This document shows, one piece after another, positions 9,644-19,866 of a stretch of 31,234 nt of DNA (the stretch's first letter is position 1; every line of letters begins with the position of its first letter). This DNA is from a virus (Duplodnaviria > Caudoviricetes). The notes under the pieces were generated by a model, which worked only from the letters and a program-made list of their open reading frames with translations, did not search any database and was not told where the DNA came from. The DNA lies in the IMG/VR virus record IMGVR_UViG_3300037424_000433, positions 1 to 31,234 of that record; one strand, 5' to 3'. A program made the translations under genes and the position numbers.

Positions 9644-9885
9644 GCGTCTGGTTGCAGGCCCTCGGATTCATTGTCGGGGCCGGGACAATTTGGCAGTATT
9701 ACCTCATGGGCCACAAGCACCCGTGGTCGTTCCCCGTTGCCACCATCGGCTGGGCGCTATGGGACTACTACCTCATCGTCACGGGACAGTGGGGACTGCT
9801 CCCGTCGTCGCTGATCTGCACGGCGCTCTCTATCCGGGGCTGGGTTCTCTGGCGGCGCGATGGCAAAACTAAAGCAGCGGCATAA
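9640..9885 (+). CDS. Small 3-TM membrane protein, PnuC/SemiSWEET-like half transporter
   Basis: Three TM helices, Trp/Gly-rich, ending GWVLWRR as in PnuC-type repeats. Confidence 0.5.
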   Translation: MSVWLQALGFIVGAGTIWQYYLMGHKHPWSFPVATIGWALWDYYLIVTGQWGLLPSSLICTALSIRGWVLWRRDGKTKAAA

Positions 9886-10303
9886 GCTCTACGACTCAGA
9901 GAACGACGTGTGGCCCGAGTACGGCACGCCGACCCCTGACGCCGCCCAAGGCTGGTATGACTGGATCACCCGAACCAAGTGGTGGCGGGATAGGTCAACC
10001 GTCAAGCACATCCGACTCAAGTACCCGATCTTTGGAAAGCTCTCCGGGATCGTGCTTGAGGACAACGTGGCGGTTGTCGAGTTCAGTCCGTTCTCTCTTA
10101 CGAAAGAATGCCTGCTCCACGAGCTGGGCCACGTCCTCGATTACCACCCGGGAACGAGTGAGGCGGCGATGGAGCGGGACCACAACCCAACCTTCGCGGG
10201 GATCCTGCTGGCGCTGGTCGGGCGCTACATGTCGGCGGACGAGGCAAAGAAACTCGCCGCGGCCTACGAGGCCCGCGGCGTGAAGTGGACGCCCTACGAA
10301 TAG
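9860..10303 (+). CDS. Zincin-type metallopeptidase (SprT/YgjP-like)
   Basis: LLHELGH followed by HNPTF third-ligand motif. Confidence 0.7.
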   Translation: MAKLKQRHKLYDSENDVWPEYGTPTPDAAQGWYDWITRTKWWRDRSTVKHIRLKYPIFGKLSGIVLEDNVAVVEFSPFSLTKECLLHELGHVLDYHPGTSEAAMERDHNPTFAGILLALVGRYMSADEAKKLAAAYEARGVKWTPYE

Positions 10304-10305
10304 CC

Positions 10306-10510
10306 GCCCAACGGACCGGAGCTAAGCTGCTGGGCCGAGGGCGGCCAATGCTCTCTGCGCCCAGTCGAAGATTGTGAGCGCGACCAGTTCCACGTCCTGG
10401 CCCTCCTCGTGTTCGTGAAGCACATCTGCGCTCGCCTTGTGAATCTTCTCCACCCAAGAGCGCGCCTGCTCTGCCCGCCCGGCCCGGTCAGCTTCAGCGA
10501 CTTGTTGGGC
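10306..10510 (-). repeat. attC: attC-like recombination site 2 (205 bp)
   Basis: Minus strand: R'' GCCCAAC, 5 nt, L'' GCTGAAGC ... L' GCTTAGC, 8 nt, R' GTTGGGC; two extrahelical bases. Confidence 0.8.
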
Positions 10511-10627
10511 GGCGACTTCACAGGCGGCGTATCCCGCACGGAATGCCTTCTCCGCCAAGACATGATCCATGTGGGCATTCCATTGAGGCAAGAACCATTT
10601 ATCAAACTGATCTGTCGTTGCTGGCAT
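10322..10627 (-). CDS. Cassette 2 protein (101 aa), translated through attC
   Basis: GGAG RBS and ATG just after the preceding GTTGGGC; stop TAG inside L' box; paralogous to cassette 1 ORF. Confidence 0.7.
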   Translation of the reverse strand: MPATTDQFDKWFLPQWNAHMDHVLAEKAFRAGYAACEVAAQQVAEADRAGRAEQARSWVEKIHKASADVLHEHEEGQDVELVALTIFDWAQRALAALGPAA

Positions 10628-10651
10628 TTCACGCTCCAGTTAGTGGCGACC

Positions 10652-10826
10652 GCCCAACGGACCGGAGCTAAGCTGCCGGGCCGAGGGCGGCTTCGCACGC
10701 CAAGACGGCGGCAACGTGTGCAGGCATGTCCTCGATACCAGCAGGGCCATGCGCCGACAGATAGGCCAGCGCCAACCGCAGGGCATCCTGCCGCCCGGCC
10801 CGGTCAGCTTCAGCGACTTGTTGGGC
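10652..10826 (-). repeat. attC: attC-like recombination site 1 (175 bp)
   Basis: Arms 41/41 and 41/42 identical to those of site 2, same box architecture, different central region. Confidence 0.8.
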
Positions 10827-10943
10827 GGCGAGACCGCGGGCCAGCCAACCCAGGTTCCACCACTCTCGGGCAATGTCTTGATGATGCGCGGCGTCTAACC
10901 GTCCGGCCCATGCCTCGGCAAAAGCATTTTCCATTGCTGCCAT
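10668..10943 (-). CDS. Cassette 1 protein (91 aa), translated through attC
   Basis: AAGGAG/GAGG RBS, ATG 10943; shares AAQQVAEADRAGR and ALGPAA-stop with cassette 2 ORF. Confidence 0.7.
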   Translation of the reverse strand: MAAMENAFAEAWAGRLDAAHHQDIAREWWNLGWLARGLAAQQVAEADRAGRQDALRLALAYLSAHGPAGIEDMPAHVAAVLACEAALGPAA

Positions 10944-10966
10944 TCCCTCATCTCCTTCGGGCGACC

Positions 10967-10987
10967 GCCCAACTAGTGATTCTGCGG
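10967..10987 (-). other. attI-like simple site heading the cassette array
   Basis: CCGCAGAAT-CACTA-GTTGGGC: R core with 5-nt spacer and no attC partner arm; followed by GGTCGCC as at the next junction. Confidence 0.55.
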
Positions 10988-11050
10988 CGCCTGTTGAAAT
11001 CTGCACGCCCCGCGTTCAATTCCTGTCCACGGCCCTGCGGCGGGGGTGGC

Positions 11051-11317
11051 CTATTCCTTTGCGAATCTTCCGGATCCATCGCGGCGCACTCGCACAACAA
11101 TGGTCCCGACGTCATATGCCCTCCTGCCAATGAGCCTTGCCAGCGCCTTCGGGTTCTTGGGTAGGTAATCGCGCTTCGCGAAATGGTAGACGGTGCTCTT
11201 CGGCAGCCCAACGCTTCTGGCGATCTCGGACCACGACTCTGTTTCCGAGCGCCGACATAGGGCAAGCCGCGCCTCAAGCACTTTGCTCTCGTCAATCTGC
11301 AGCGATGACTTTTTCAT
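11051..11317 (-). CDS. HTH DNA-binding protein
   Basis: SWSEIARSVGLPKSTVYHFAK helix-turn-helix. Confidence 0.7.
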   Translation of the reverse strand: MKKSSLQIDESKVLEARLALCRRSETESWSEIARSVGLPKSTVYHFAKRDYLPKNPKALARLIGRRAYDVGTIVVRVRRDGSGRFAKE

Positions 11318-11840
11318 AGGCGTCTGCCAAGAAACTGGTTCTGCCTTTCTTGTCGCTAACTCGGAAGCCGGCCGTATGCTCTCTGAGGATTGCGTGGGCC
11401 TCCGGAAGAACGCCCGACAAGGCTAGAACGTCGAGCCATGACTTCCATGCCGGGCGCTTCGAATAGCCGGTGCCATATTCCGCATCGTAGCATTCGGCGC
11501 ACAGAATGATTGATGGCGAGTGCTCTCGGTACGCATAGGGCAGGAAGCAGTCGGGGCAAATTGCTCTCCGATGCCCCCGCTCCTTCCGCCTGTTCAGGAT
11601 GAACTGCTGCTTTTGCCGAACGTCTTCGAAGTGCTTATTTGACGCCAGGGCGTTGCACAGGGAGCAGGCCGGAACGAGATTCTCCAGACTGTCGTCCTGA
11701 TCGTATGACCAGGGAACAACGTGGTCGATCGTGGTCGCCACTTCCTCGCGGCAGTAATAGCAAAGAACTCCGTACAGAGCCGTCAGCTCGTCCCAATGGC
11801 GCCTATAACGAAAACGATTGGTCCTGATTGTCCTGGCCAT
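11292..11840 (-). CDS. HNH endonuclease with extra C-terminal Zn finger
   Basis: CYYC, TIDHVVP, NLVPACSLCN, then CPDC/CAEC; start 11840 chosen because a promoter lies just upstream. Confidence 0.85.
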   Translation of the reverse strand: MARTIRTNRFRYRRHWDELTALYGVLCYYCREEVATTIDHVVPWSYDQDDSLENLVPACSLCNALASNKHFEDVRQKQQFILNRRKERGHRRAICPDCFLPYAYREHSPSIILCAECYDAEYGTGYSKRPAWKSWLDVLALSGVLPEAHAILREHTAGFRVSDKKGRTSFLADAYEKVIAAD

Positions 11841-11850
11841 GCCTAGCCCG

Positions 11851-11879
11851 TTTATAGCCCGTTTAGGGCGATTTGTCAA
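11851..11879 (-). promoter_or_regulatory. Sigma70-type promoter TTGACA-N17-TATAAA
   Basis: Near-consensus hexamers with 17-nt spacer, 10 nt before the HNH ATG; overlapped by an 11-bp tandem repeat at 11844-11865. Confidence 0.7.
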
Positions 11880-12006
11880 TGGCTGGAATGGCCTCATTTG
11901 GGGTTCGCCTTCCTGTATCCGCCGCCCCCCGCTCAAGGCCTCGCGCACATCTCGGAGAGGCCAGCCGAACGAGTCGGTATGTCAGTCAGGGCCGGCAGCG
12001 GATCGG

Positions 12007-13167
12007 TCACTCGCCAAACAGCGTCGTCTGCCCGGCCTCGAGCAGGACGGCGCGAACAATGCCTTGCGCCTCCCGAACCGCGTCGGCATCGGGCTTGTAG
12101 GCCCCGCCAGAGTCCTTCGTCGGCTTGAGCCAATCCAGGAGGGCAAGCACCTGCGCCGGCTGGAGGTCGTTCCCGCTCGTGACTTCGCAGAGGAACTTGA
12201 GCACCGAATGGCGCAGCTTCTCGGAGTCCTTCTGACCGGCGAAGCATTCGTTGAGCATGCCCATCGCGAGGCCGCGTTGTTCGGCAGAACACGCCTTGCC
12301 CTCGTTCGCCATCGTCCGGTCGAGGATCTTGGTCCGCAAGACCTCGGGAGGATATGGGCGGCCCGCAGGGACGGCAGCTTCAGATGCAACCTCGCCAGCC
12401 GTCACGACAGATTCAATCCACTCCGGCCCGCCCTCGTCCGGCTCATCCGGCGCCTCGAGCATGGGCACGTCCTCGCCCAATCCATTGCCCGGGAGAGCCG
12501 CCGCCTTCATCGCCAGGATCTTCGCCTTGACCCACTGCGGGTCGGCCTCGATCGAGAGCAGCCACTTCTCGCGCCGGGCGCGCTTTCCGTCCGGGCCCGA
12601 TGGCGTGCTAATCATCATCGGGCGTCGGCGCAATTTCAGGGGGACGCCAGATAGCTTGCCGTTGATCTGCAGGAGCGCCTCGAGCTGGCGGTGCAAGTTC
12701 ATGATGTCATGAAGGCTGGTTGTCATGACCGTCAGGTAGGCAAGGCGGTGCAACTCGGGGACGAGGACCTTGAGGCGGCCAACCGGCTTGCATCCGGCCG
12801 TGCCATCACACTTCTTCTCCGGCCGACCGTCAACGACGGCGGGCTTGGCTCCGTGGCCGAGCTCGTACTGAATGCGATCGCCGTCGCATCGGTGGATCAG
12901 CCCGCCGGCGACATAGGCCTCGCGCCAAGCGTCGAAGTTCTCATCGACCACATTGAACGGAAGCAGGACGTTGATCTCGTCGGGTTGCTCGCCGTACTCT
13001 CCCTTGAACGTGGCGGCAGCCTCGACCTCGCGCTCATCGAACTCGACGCGGAACCACGTCAGGTCGGCGCCGGGCCGTTTCCCGTCGGCTGGCTTCGGGG
13101 CGCCCTTGCGCACCTGGCCGATCTCCGGGAAGGACGCGGCACGATCGGTAAGTCCTCGGATTGGCAT
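12007..13167 (-). CDS. Gp3-like / recombination directionality factor-like protein
   Basis: MPIRGLT..FPEIGQVRKG, RCDG, CKPVGRLKVLVPEL, TTS.HDI, GVPL.LRRRP motifs; GGAGGAG RBS. Confidence 0.7.
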   Translation of the reverse strand: MPIRGLTDRAASFPEIGQVRKGAPKPADGKRPGADLTWFRVEFDEREVEAAATFKGEYGEQPDEINVLLPFNVVDENFDAWREAYVAGGLIHRCDGDRIQYELGHGAKPAVVDGRPEKKCDGTAGCKPVGRLKVLVPELHRLAYLTVMTTSLHDIMNLHRQLEALLQINGKLSGVPLKLRRRPMMISTPSGPDGKRARREKWLLSIEADPQWVKAKILAMKAAALPGNGLGEDVPMLEAPDEPDEGGPEWIESVVTAGEVASEAAVPAGRPYPPEVLRTKILDRTMANEGKACSAEQRGLAMGMLNECFAGQKDSEKLRHSVLKFLCEVTSGNDLQPAQVLALLDWLKPTKDSGGAYKPDADAVREAQGIVRAVLLEAGQTTLFGE

Positions 13168-15187: not shown

Positions 15188-15317
15188 TGGTAGAATGAAT
15201 CATGGCAGAGTGGGAGGCATTCCGCTTCCAGATGAAAAGTCCGTCCGTGACGCTTGCCTCGCGCTCTGCCATGAACGCGCTCCTGTGTCACGGGCGGACC
15301 TTTCATTCGGAGGGCAT
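15188..15317 (+). promoter_or_regulatory. Extended -10 promoter (TGG-TAGAAT) plus leader with two interleaved 20-bp inverted repeats
   Basis: Stems 15200-15219/15255-15274 and 15232-15251/15287-15306; the second ends next to the GGAGGG RBS. Confidence 0.55.
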
Positions 15318-16247
15318 GTGATCGACTTCGGAGAACTCAAGACCTATGAGGATCATGAGCAGGCGATGGTCAACCTCTCGCAAGCTGGGGAGGAGACCGT
15401 CTGGGAGCGCGGCGATGTGATGCTGCACGCGGTCCCGGAGGCGTCTGAGGGCAGGCCACCGAAAGAGGGAAAGAAGACCATCGCCGTTCTCTCTAGGGCC
15501 GGGACCTGGAGCCAGAGTTATGGCAATCGCGTCTATCTGACGGCTGCGTACTTCCCGAGGAAAACTAGACTTAGAAGTCTAGTTTGCGAGGCCGGGGTTC
15601 CGTTCTCGTGGGCCGACCTGGCTAGGCAACGCATTCCGGGCGGCCCCGGCAACGCGGTCGAGGAGTTGTGCGACGCCCGAGAGCGCGGCCTGTCGTGGCC
15701 CGAGTTCCGGGCCGAGATCGATGCGAAGTTCCCCCGTCAGGTCGAAGTCCCCGCGATCCCGAAAGGCCAGTATCGAGTCATCTACGCTGACCCGCCTTGG
15801 CAATTCGACAATTCCGGCCTGGAGCAGTCCGCCGAGAGTCACTACCCAACGCTGGCGACGGACGACATCTGCAAGATCGTCGTTCCTGCCGCGGCGCGCT
15901 CTGTCCTGTTCATGTGGGCAACGAATGCCATGCTGCCCGACGCCATGCGCGTCGTTGAGGCGTGGGGCTTCGAGTACAAGACGAATCTTGTCTGGGTGAA
16001 AGAGCGTGGCCCATCCATTGGATGGTTCGTCACGAGTCGGCATGAGCTTCTCCTGTTGGCGGTCCGAGGCGAGAAGATGCACCCAGCGATCAAGCCGGCC
16101 TCAGTCATAACGGCCGGCGTCACGGTTCACTCGAAGAAGCCCGATGTCGTCTACGGGACCATCGAGAGCATGTATGAGGGGCCATACCTGGAGATGTTTG
16201 CGCGGCAGACGCGTCCGGGTTGGGAGAGTTGGGGCAATGAGGTCTGA
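15318..16247 (+). CDS. MT-A70 family adenine methyltransferase with N-terminal helical domain
   Basis: YRVIYADPPW, LFMWATN, WGFEYKT, HSKKP, LEMFAR, GWESWGNE; GTG start after GGAGGG. Confidence 0.9.
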   Translation: MIDFGELKTYEDHEQAMVNLSQAGEETVWERGDVMLHAVPEASEGRPPKEGKKTIAVLSRAGTWSQSYGNRVYLTAAYFPRKTRLRSLVCEAGVPFSWADLARQRIPGGPGNAVEELCDARERGLSWPEFRAEIDAKFPRQVEVPAIPKGQYRVIYADPPWQFDNSGLEQSAESHYPTLATDDICKIVVPAAARSVLFMWATNAMLPDAMRVVEAWGFEYKTNLVWVKERGPSIGWFVTSRHELLLLAVRGEKMHPAIKPASVITAGVTVHSKKPDVVYGTIESMYEGPYLEMFARQTRPGWESWGNEV

Positions 16248-18283: not shown

Positions 18284-18664
18284 ATGTTCATCCCGACTCT
18301 TCCCGACCTCGCTCTAGCCGAGATCAAGGCGCACATCTCATCTGGAAAGCTGGCCGTCCACCGGATCGTCGAGCCGAAGCCGCTTGCCGCCTGTCAGAAC
18401 TGCAACGATGACGGCCTCGTGTATGTGAGCCTCCTCGGTGCGGGCCCGTCGAAGCAGCCGATCGGGACGGGGAAGCCGTCCACCTATTTCGAGGGTGACG
18501 GGTTTGGCAAGAAGGGTTGGTATCTGATCGAGAGGACGGCATCTTACGGTTGCCCAAAGTGTTCGGGGCAGCGCGCGCCTCAGAGGCAGGGCACGAGGCG
18601 GCCCGAGGTTCCTGGCATGCTTCATGGCCTGGCCGATCGGGCGCGGCCGGTGGGGGAGCTGTGA
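18284..18664 (+). CDS. Zn-finger protein following the replication initiator
   Basis: CQNCNDDG ... CPKC. Confidence 0.55.
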   Translation: MFIPTLPDLALAEIKAHISSGKLAVHRIVEPKPLAACQNCNDDGLVYVSLLGAGPSKQPIGTGKPSTYFEGDGFGKKGWYLIERTASYGCPKCSGQRAPQRQGTRRPEVPGMLHGLADRARPVGEL

Positions 18665-19866
18665 TCCTTCGTGGAGACGCGCGGCATATTCCGCTGGCCG
18701 ACGAGACGGTTCAGGTTTGCGTTACAAGTCCGCCGTACTGGGGCTTGAGGGACTACGGGCTTGCGACGTGGGAGGGCGGGGATGCTGGGTGTGATCATCG
18801 GCACCCGAGTGAGCGTCGTCAACTTCCGCACGGCGATGGCAGGTCGAATGATTCGTATGCCGACGATAGGCACATCATTCCTGGCGTGGTGGCCGCCTTC
18901 AAGGAGACCTGCGGCAAGTGCGGCGCCGTTCGCCACGACGCCGGCATCGGCTTGGAGAAGACTCCGGAGGAGTACGTCGCCAACATCGTCCAGGTGTTCA
19001 GGGAGGTACGGAGGGTCCTGAGAGACGACGGGACGCTGTGGCTGAACCTGGGGGACTGCTATGCCAGAGACCCGCGCCGAGGCGTGAAGTTCCAGGCGGG
19101 CGCGTCTACTTACCTGACGAATCAACAGGCGGACGAGGGGAACCGCGGGCCAGCCATCCCCGACGGGCTGAAGGAGAAGGACCTCGTCGGCATCCCCTGG
19201 CGCGTTGCCTTCGCCCTTCAGGCCGACGGCTGGTATCTCAGGTCAGACATCATCTGGCACAAGCCCAATCCGATGCCGGAGTCGGTTAGGGACAGGCCGA
19301 CGAAGGCGCATGAGTACTTGTTCCTGCTGACGAAGCAGCCGAGGTACTACTACGACGCGGAGGCGATAGTCGAGGAGACCACCAGCGATGCGGGCAATCG
19401 GCGCGAGTTCCGTGGTGCGGGATCATACACGGGCGGAAACAGTTTTGTGAACGATGCCGTCCGCCCGAATGGTGTGCGGGGAAATGATGGCATCCCGCGC
19501 CCAACCCGCAACCGCCGCGACGTGTGGACGATCCCGACGCATCCGTACAAGGGCGCTCACTTCGCCACCTACCCCGAGAAGCTGGTGGAGCCGTGCATCC
19601 TGGCGGGGAGCAAGCCTGGCGATGTGGTCCTGGACCCGTTCTGCGGCAGCGGGACAACGGGGGCTGTGGCGATCAGGCATGGTAGAGACTTCGTCGGGAT
19701 CGACATGAGCCCTGAGTATCTTGAGTTGGCGCGCTGCAGGATTGAAGAGGCGCAAGTGCTTCTTCCGCTGTCGCCCAGCGATACGAGTGAACCGGACTCC
19801 GCTGCAAGTCCGCGGAGCGTCGAGCTCTGTCTGGGCGTCCGCAAGCTGACCGAGGGGGATCTATGA
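18661..19866 (+). CDS. Site-specific DNA methyltransferase (N4-C/N6-A, beta class)
   Basis: VTSPPY, WLNLGD, IIWHKPNPMPES, HFATYP, LDPFCGSGTT. Confidence 0.92.
   Translation: MILRGDARHIPLADETVQVCVTSPPYWGLRDYGLATWEGGDAGCDHRHPSERRQLPHGDGRSNDSYADDRHIIPGVVAAFKETCGKCGAVRHDAGIGLEKTPEEYVANIVQVFREVRRVLRDDGTLWLNLGDCYARDPRRGVKFQAGASTYLTNQQADEGNRGPAIPDGLKEKDLVGIPWRVAFALQADGWYLRSDIIWHKPNPMPESVRDRPTKAHEYLFLLTKQPRYYYDAEAIVEETTSDAGNRREFRGAGSYTGGNSFVNDAVRPNGVRGNDGIPRPTRNRRDVWTIPTHPYKGAHFATYPEKLVEPCILAGSKPGDVVLDPFCGSGTTGAVAIRHGRDFVGIDMSPEYLELARCRIEEAQVLLPLSPSDTSEPDSAASPRSVELCLGVRKLTEGDL

Follow-up and report, generated by a model that had tools for sequence, protein, structure and literature searches.

Phage integron-type arrays whose hairpin loops probably encode exchangeable protein halves

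Two read-through cassettes in a phage record

The window analyzed here is the whole of a 31,234-nt stretch of IMG/VR record IMGVR_UViG_3300037424_000433. It contains terminase, portal, head and tape-measure genes, and represents a 31-kb phage record that is approximately 40% complete. Its minus strand carries two small ORFs, each overlapping an attC-type site (Table 1). Both have a GGAG motif ahead of the start and are open from ATG to a TAG inside the L' box, in agreement with the original prediction of genes that read through the whole attC site. Cassette ORFs typically, though not absolutely, end at or before R''; both of these end in L'.

The core boxes are complementary at both sites (R'' GCCCAAC with R' GTTGGGC, conforming to RYYYAAC/GTTRRRY), L'' and L' pair at seven of seven positions with one extra G in L'', and the spacers measure 5 and 8 nt. 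The predicted bottom-strand fold of each site contains 3/3 core R pairs and 7/7 L pairs, with similar energies on both strands. The left arms (GCCCAAC R'', 5-nt spacer, L'' with extra G) are 41 nt long and identical, and the right arms (10650-10691 and 10304-10345) are 42 nt long and 98% identical. Between them lie dissimilar loops whose lengths are both multiples of three, as had been predicted. The site lengths were also given correctly, and their description as longer than typical holds to a moderate degree, the medians of related bacterial attC sites being 130 and 152 nt. The N-modules align at F8, A25, G32 and W/Y33, and the arms encode AAQQVAEADRAGR (left) and ALGPAA (L', with the TAG inside the box), both as first reported. 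The arm peptide by itself does not point to protein selection: non-coding host-type sites, where the gene stops beforehand, translate to the same AAQQLAEADPAG, and the peptide is attC DNA translated, nothing more.

A 251-aa plus-strand ORF (10409-11164) is probably a shadow frame and was disregarded; homologues back the minus-strand frames. The array end (10301-10312) abuts the stop codon of a convergent plus-strand gene (9860-10303), with no terminator between them. No sigma-70-type promoter match was found in 10200-11400, and the one terminator-like match, no better than chance, falls outside the array. The upstream minus-strand genes could supply its transcription. Two DNA methyltransferase genes lie elsewhere in the window (15195-16247 and 18517-19866; MT-A70 and N6/N4 types).

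Table 1. Positions of the array features and of a nearby gene in the window.
Feature	Position	Strand	Remarks
PF18897 gene	12007..13167	-	Gp3-like, recombination directionality factor-like; Pfam E 4e-29
Array entry site, attI-like	10967..11008	-	…AGAATCACTAG|TT; crossover point between 10973 and 10972; putative function
Cassette 1, 315 nt	10658..10972	-	Leader with ribosome-binding motif, ORF, coding attC; missing in near-identical G004
ORF 1, 91 aa	10668..10943	-	38-aa N-module, arm peptide, loop-encoded C-module, stop in L'
attC-type site 1, 175 nt	10652..10826	-	R'' GCCCAAC, L'' with extra G, L', R' GTTGGGC
Left arm 1 (R''-spacer-L''-inner stem), translated	10791..10831	-	Identical to 10475-10515; likely module-swap zone
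Loop 1, 99 nt	10692..10790	-	In frame, stop-free
Cassette 2, 346 nt	10312..10657	-	Repeat spacing 346; unchanged in G004, directly behind entry site
ORF 2, 101 aa	10322..10627	-	MP..F.KW..AF.AG[WY]-type N-module, arm peptide, loop-encoded C-module, stop in L'
attC-type site 2, 205 nt	10306..10510	-	Core boxes and fold
Left arm 2, translated	10475..10515	-	41-nt repeat of left arm 1
Loop 2, 129 nt	10346..10474	-	In frame, stop-free

Neither an integron integrase nor a tyrosine recombinase was found in the window, an incomplete record. With two attC-type sites 316 nt apart and no integron integrase nearby, the locus corresponds to a CALIN as defined in the consulted part of PMC9892861. The intI gene of a complete integron is absent from the incomplete window and likewise from its relatives, including the complete phage G001: TIGR02249 matched in none of five phage records (the window and four relatives), and none passed the PF00589 cut-off.

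Exact-pattern scans for the arms in IMG/VR yielded four further contigs. Phage G004 lacks exactly cassette 1 and, to either side of the gap, matches the window at 95-98% identity; the arrays of phages G001 and G002 are longer than that of the window. Phage G002 also carries a sugar-nucleotide gene cluster (L253:7826-16873; NeuB, aminotransferase, cytidylyltransferase, glycosyltransferase and methyltransferase). Scans for the arms in metagenomes (18 of 64 parts) and in GTDB (41 of 64 parts) gave at least 129 loci and at least 240 rows, respectively. The metagenome scan added two phage-like loci, L320 and L365, which were classed as phage after inspection; nearly all other matches are host-type arrays with the same arms, and together with those from GTDB they form the control set. 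Three loci were excluded from it: L301 and, as copies of G001 and G003, L344 and L356. There were no matches among 50,697 GenBank phages. A loose left-arm pattern picked up 14 extra IMG/VR contigs, which were rejected as chance since they hold no paired arms except for one spurious pairing.

Probable coding in the attC loops

The phage sites that could be parsed number 22, from five sources, and are not independent; six have TAA in R'' (88-89 nt) and 16 do not (121-286 nt), with one loop occurring twice among the latter. Read-through sites have CAA or GAA in R'' where ordinary cassettes have the TAA stop, which is also present in 349 of 352 GTDB control sites. Their layout is an N-module of about 40 aa, the arm, and a loop of 20-100 aa, with the stop usually at the TAG of L'. 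The reading frame is kept and stop-free in 13 of the 16 phage sites that lack TAA, versus 11 of 92 host-type metagenome sites (Fisher p 5e-8). In one of the 13 the TAG is changed to CAG and the frame continues; in the remaining three of the 16 the frame enters the loop and stops before L'. Moving L320 and L365 to the host side gives 11/13 versus 14/99 (p 5e-7), a comparison in which the host side was padded by hand, with two TAA sites of L301 entered as misses.

Shuffling yields an expectation of 5.0 open loops against the 13 observed, and each of the five other frames is open in 6-7 of the 16. GC content by codon position is 0.67/0.51/0.75 in the phage loops and 0.61/0.47/0.79 in the window genes, versus 0.70 throughout in host loops. 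The only divergent loop pair for which DNA is available (G1a/G1g, 22 codons) has pS 0.46 and pN 0.08, from six synonymous changes per 13.2 sites and four non-synonymous changes per 52.8 sites (p 0.003); one N-module pair has pS 0.37 and pN 0.17 (p 0.045). Two of the checks originally proposed, for a bias of loop length to multiples of three and for dN/dS in the loops, have thus been run, and both favor coding. The read-through feature is real and statistically solid, and sequence evidence of this kind indicates that the loops likely encode the C-terminal modules of both window proteins.

One alternative holds that read-through is incidental, a product of TAA-to-CAA changes in GC-rich DNA, and that the apparent exchanges of protein halves described below are assembly chimeras formed at the 41-nt repeats. 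GC-rich loops are indeed often open by chance (33 of 92 host-type loops), and in phage TJE1 ORFs run about ten codons into short attC sites. The frame lock, the codon bias and the synonymous excess all argue against the incidental part; evidence on chimeras is given with the exchanges.

Hairpins, cassette units and probable exchange of protein halves

The six bases inside each L box form an inner stem that occurs in 12 distinct versions and pairs with its own partner at 55 of 72 positions. Permuting the stems gave a mean of 34.6 pairs, and none of 20,000 permutations reached 55. Among 14 distinct stems, G-T wobble pairs fall eight times on the bottom strand and once on the top strand (p 0.02); the bottom strand is the one preferred by IntI, according to the parts consulted of PMC8946536 and PMC2727003. 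This covariation, taken with the frame lock, gene-like codon composition and synonymous excess, supports the earlier proposal that selection holds both the reading frame and the hairpin.

In six TAA cassettes the 5' end agrees with the cassette's own site at 41 of 42 positions and with the R' that follows at 22 of 42, which is the mark of units cut at G|TT; the test is weak for read-through cassettes because most of them share one R sequence. The G004 alignment to the window stops at 10658 and resumes from 10960, such that cassette 1 is missing between two G|TT points. The loss sits within a 14-nt direct repeat, and homology could therefore also explain it.

Arrays begin at a conserved site, which in the window (10967-11008) lies beyond the stretch first reported. 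A AATCACTAGTT core heads the arrays of the window, G004, G001 (twice), G002 and L365; the site ends AATCACTAG|TT, and different cassettes begin at G|TT. Its layout resembles that of the Shewanella attI quoted in the available text of PMC9892861. In the genomes searched, no full intI was seen with such a site next to it. An Anaerolineae MAG (G007; L433 and L436, that is, C233 and C252) has three copies of a conserved stretch that ends in a near match to the phage entry site; each is conserved upstream and followed by different DNA from G|TT on, and one copy precedes a tyrosine recombinase gene. The entry motif was present in 2 of 401 genomes of the class of G007 and in 1 of 301 of the class of G009, there on the phage contig only; two extra motif matches were dismissed as chance. 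None of five candidate host MAGs has an intI above the cut-off. Binning, itself weak evidence of host, places phage G001 in a Thermoleophilia-labelled MAG where host-type arrays are also present.

The arrays of G001 lie on opposite strands (L249 1956-5800 minus and 10630-12740 plus) and mix TAA cassettes with 88-89-nt sites, read-through cassettes and degenerate arms; one G001 protein (2286-2750) has two left arms and hence three modules. In G002 the cassette behind a contig-end entry site (L254:6722-6807) begins identically to the one behind an attC near a contig start (L252:815-895), which may reflect duplication or a mixed cassette order in the population.

The arms could alternatively be fossil attC sites that now serve as short homology repeats, in the manner of PeSL elements, with no integrase acting on them. 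This reading draws on the lack of IntI in five phage records, one of them complete, on several phage sites that have lost the right arm or 6 nt of spacer or L'', and on the fit of the cassette 1 deletion to the 14-nt repeat. Set against it are the compensated, loop-specific stems with their bottom-strand wobble bias, the cassette 5' ends matched to their own R'', and the conservation of the entry site across distinct phages, in which the sequences switch exactly at G|TT. We consider it unlikely that the sites are fossils.

Reassortment was followed in 35 distinct proteins, 19 of them taken from DNA and 16 known as protein only, with arms placed by peptide motifs. The profile search, whose profile favors this layout, had at least 24 matches among 8000 candidates scored. 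At a threshold of 60% identity, seven pairs share an N-module and eight share a C-module, and only P0010/P0017 share both; accordingly six of the seven same-front pairs have different back halves and seven of the eight same-back pairs have different fronts. Three joints of run X1 that enclose undetermined sequence were left out of these counts. The C-modules of both window proteins recur: that of ORF 1 (91% identical) lies behind an unrelated N-module in P0004, and that of ORF 2 (91% identical) lies behind a different N-module in P0002. A related-locus search with P0002 returned two weak 12-residue matches and nothing else. An identical N-module precedes unrelated tails in P0014 and P0016; in P0019 the N-module and spacer residue come from one L365 cassette and the loop from the cassette after it; and the complete genome G001 has one identical loop behind two unrelated N-modules. 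N- and C-modules hence assort almost independently among the 35 proteins, the outcome sought by another of the proposed checks, and the suggestion that identical arms could let modules be exchanged gains from the same halves appearing in other pairings, both window loops included. The halves have likely been swapped by recombination in the shared hairpin arm, as judged from these pairings.

Single pairings may be assembly chimeras. Contigs of run X1 break at the arms, where the N-loop pairing of ORF 1 was not confirmed, and the holes in the cover of that run (the ORF 1 N-module and 11067-11821) are uninformative; the N-loop pairing of ORF 2 is repeated in G004. Chimerism as a general account is opposed by the identical loop behind two unrelated N-modules inside a complete genome, by loops that are 85-94% identical rather than copies in four of seven discordant same-loop pairs, and by P0019, where the joined L365 arms share an exact tract of only 10 nt, presumably below the usual assembly k-mer. 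Incidental read-through combined with chimeric assembly is therefore, in our estimation, very improbable.

Among 13 read-through cassettes measured (window, L249, L252 and L365), G|TT and the AAC of R'' are separated by 130-161 nt in 12 and by 301 nt in the thirteenth, where a second, degenerate arm is present. The N-module is 38-46 aa long in 31 of 35 proteins, unrelated N-modules included, and none of 48 host cassette bodies measures 130-165 nt.

The position of the cut limits what an integrase can do here. Because G|TT follows the stop codon, ORF and loop move together, an integrase cutting there cannot swap halves, and swaps need another crossover. One candidate is IntI acting on the top strands of two attC sites and cutting in R'' at the N/C boundary, that is, site-specific domain shuffling. 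The module boundary coincides with R'', top-strand recombination at R'' is implied by the available portion of PMC2727003, and the inner stems travel with their loops. In the trio G1b, G2c and P0018, which shares an N-module, each member has a spacer of its own; a crossover at or before AA|C would account for this, and the pattern speaks against exchange farther along the arm. Cutting in R'' should also carry the spacer with the loop, but the spacer differs in four same-loop pairs (G1a/G1d, W2/P0002, W1/P0004 and M365b/P0019; three of them from protein sequence only). The wobble bias favors the bottom strand, which is approximately 1000-fold more efficient according to the part consulted of PMC8946536, and degenerate arms with in-frame 6-nt deletions, including deletions that break L'', still join modules. 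In G1d, a 6-nt arm deletion is common to G1c, which has a different loop, and not to G1a, which has the same loop. Crossover points that vary along the arm are best fitted by homology-driven exchange, and top-strand cutting by IntI appears doubtful to us.

We favor, as the probable reading of these sequence patterns, a process at two levels, in which a host integrase would move whole cassettes and homology-driven crossovers in the left arm would swap halves. Host IntI, supplied in trans and acting on the bottom-strand hairpin, would insert and excise cassettes and thereby keep the stems under selection. Against this, long loops are reported in the accessible part of PMC8946536 to reduce IntI recombination by up to 4 logs under replication. 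Half swaps would come from crossovers within 20-40 nt of the near-identical, frame-locked left arm, with a phage single-strand annealing protein as the probable agent. The PF18897 gene product is a possible recombination helper; a G002 gene that shares DNA with the PF18897 gene has a weak, sub-threshold RecT match (E 0.004).

The products of the two-level process would be small accessory proteins, many with Cys-rich tails; close cysteine pairs occur in 13 of 35 tails. Neither window protein matched a Pfam or PHROG family, and their sister read-through proteins gave weak matches at most. In the ESM Atlas no feature match exceeded 0.84 for a low-confidence model (pTM 0.29), and a PF27050 cluster at 0.83 is no more than a lead. 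The likeliest class would be small accessory proteins, metal-binding or helical, that act on the host. In the same arrays of G001, arm-free small genes (L249:3954-4622 and about 12730-13000) share an 'ARIEALEEV' linker peptide; they are reminiscent of the mosaic ea22-type genes of lambdoid phages, and the linker would be a second modular joint.

A broader interpretation, which we put forward tentatively at somewhat below even chances, is that phages have turned attC into a natural two-level device. The host integrase would reorder cassettes at G|TT, and the translated, frame-locked left arm would be a dedicated joint where N-modules of about 40 aa and loop C-domains recombine and are selected, so that small host-interaction proteins would form a combinatorial library and new cassettes could arise.

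Comparison with known systems

attC loops count as non-coding spacers, and short sites are favored by attC finders; such arrays are therefore likely under-called and their genes misread. Chromosomal attC arrays (Bacteroidota, Ignavibacteria, Anaerolineae and metagenome contigs) have the same R''/L''/L'/R' motifs and long loops, but their sites are of near-fixed length (130 or 152 nt) and have TAA in R'', and their loops are flat in codon composition and often contain stops.

CALINs are already on record in phages, with recombination reported for some of their attC sites (Qi et al. 2023, PMC9892861). As described in the consulted part of that paper, they resemble the present arrays in having at least two attC sites in the same orientation, small ORFs, G|TT junctions and no integron integrase; coding loops or module swaps are not described in that part. 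In the TJE1 array (HQ225832; L445 77-280, 318-1046) the sites are short and two annotated ORFs end about ten codons inside attC, so an ORF end inside attC is not new in itself. The arrays described here differ from the TJE1 CALIN in their reassorting loops of 20-100 aa and in opening at a conserved attI-like site.

PeSL cassettes of T4-type phages undergo modular shuffling mediated by short repeats in a variable region (Arbiol et al. 2010, PMC2839356, as far as consulted). They are intergenic promoter-terminator units, whereas here the arms are intragenic, have attC anatomy and come with no sigma-70 promoter found. A search of full-text literature, in which subscription journals were mostly not covered, retrieved no report of natural domain-coding attC loops that reassort. 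Within that coverage, what sets the present phage attC arrays apart is that their sites are probably dual-coding and their protein halves reassort.

The arrays give a testable handle on the origin of cassettes and loops, and allow one to ask whether phages borrow host integrases via their own attI-like sites. A further parallel is synthetic: attC sites embedded in proteins have been engineered and proposed for module shuffling (Nivina et al. 2020, PMC7439510). There too one sequence is both recombination hairpin and coding; according to the sections available, the lacZ-design loops are 3-21 nt and the entire site acts as a linker with its crossover at G|TT, whereas the present sites occur naturally, their loops make up the domain and G|TT comes after the stop codon. 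Provided that translation and recombination are real, phages would have a means of assembling new small proteins from parts with the frame kept safe, and what was engineered in 2020 would already exist in nature at domain scale.
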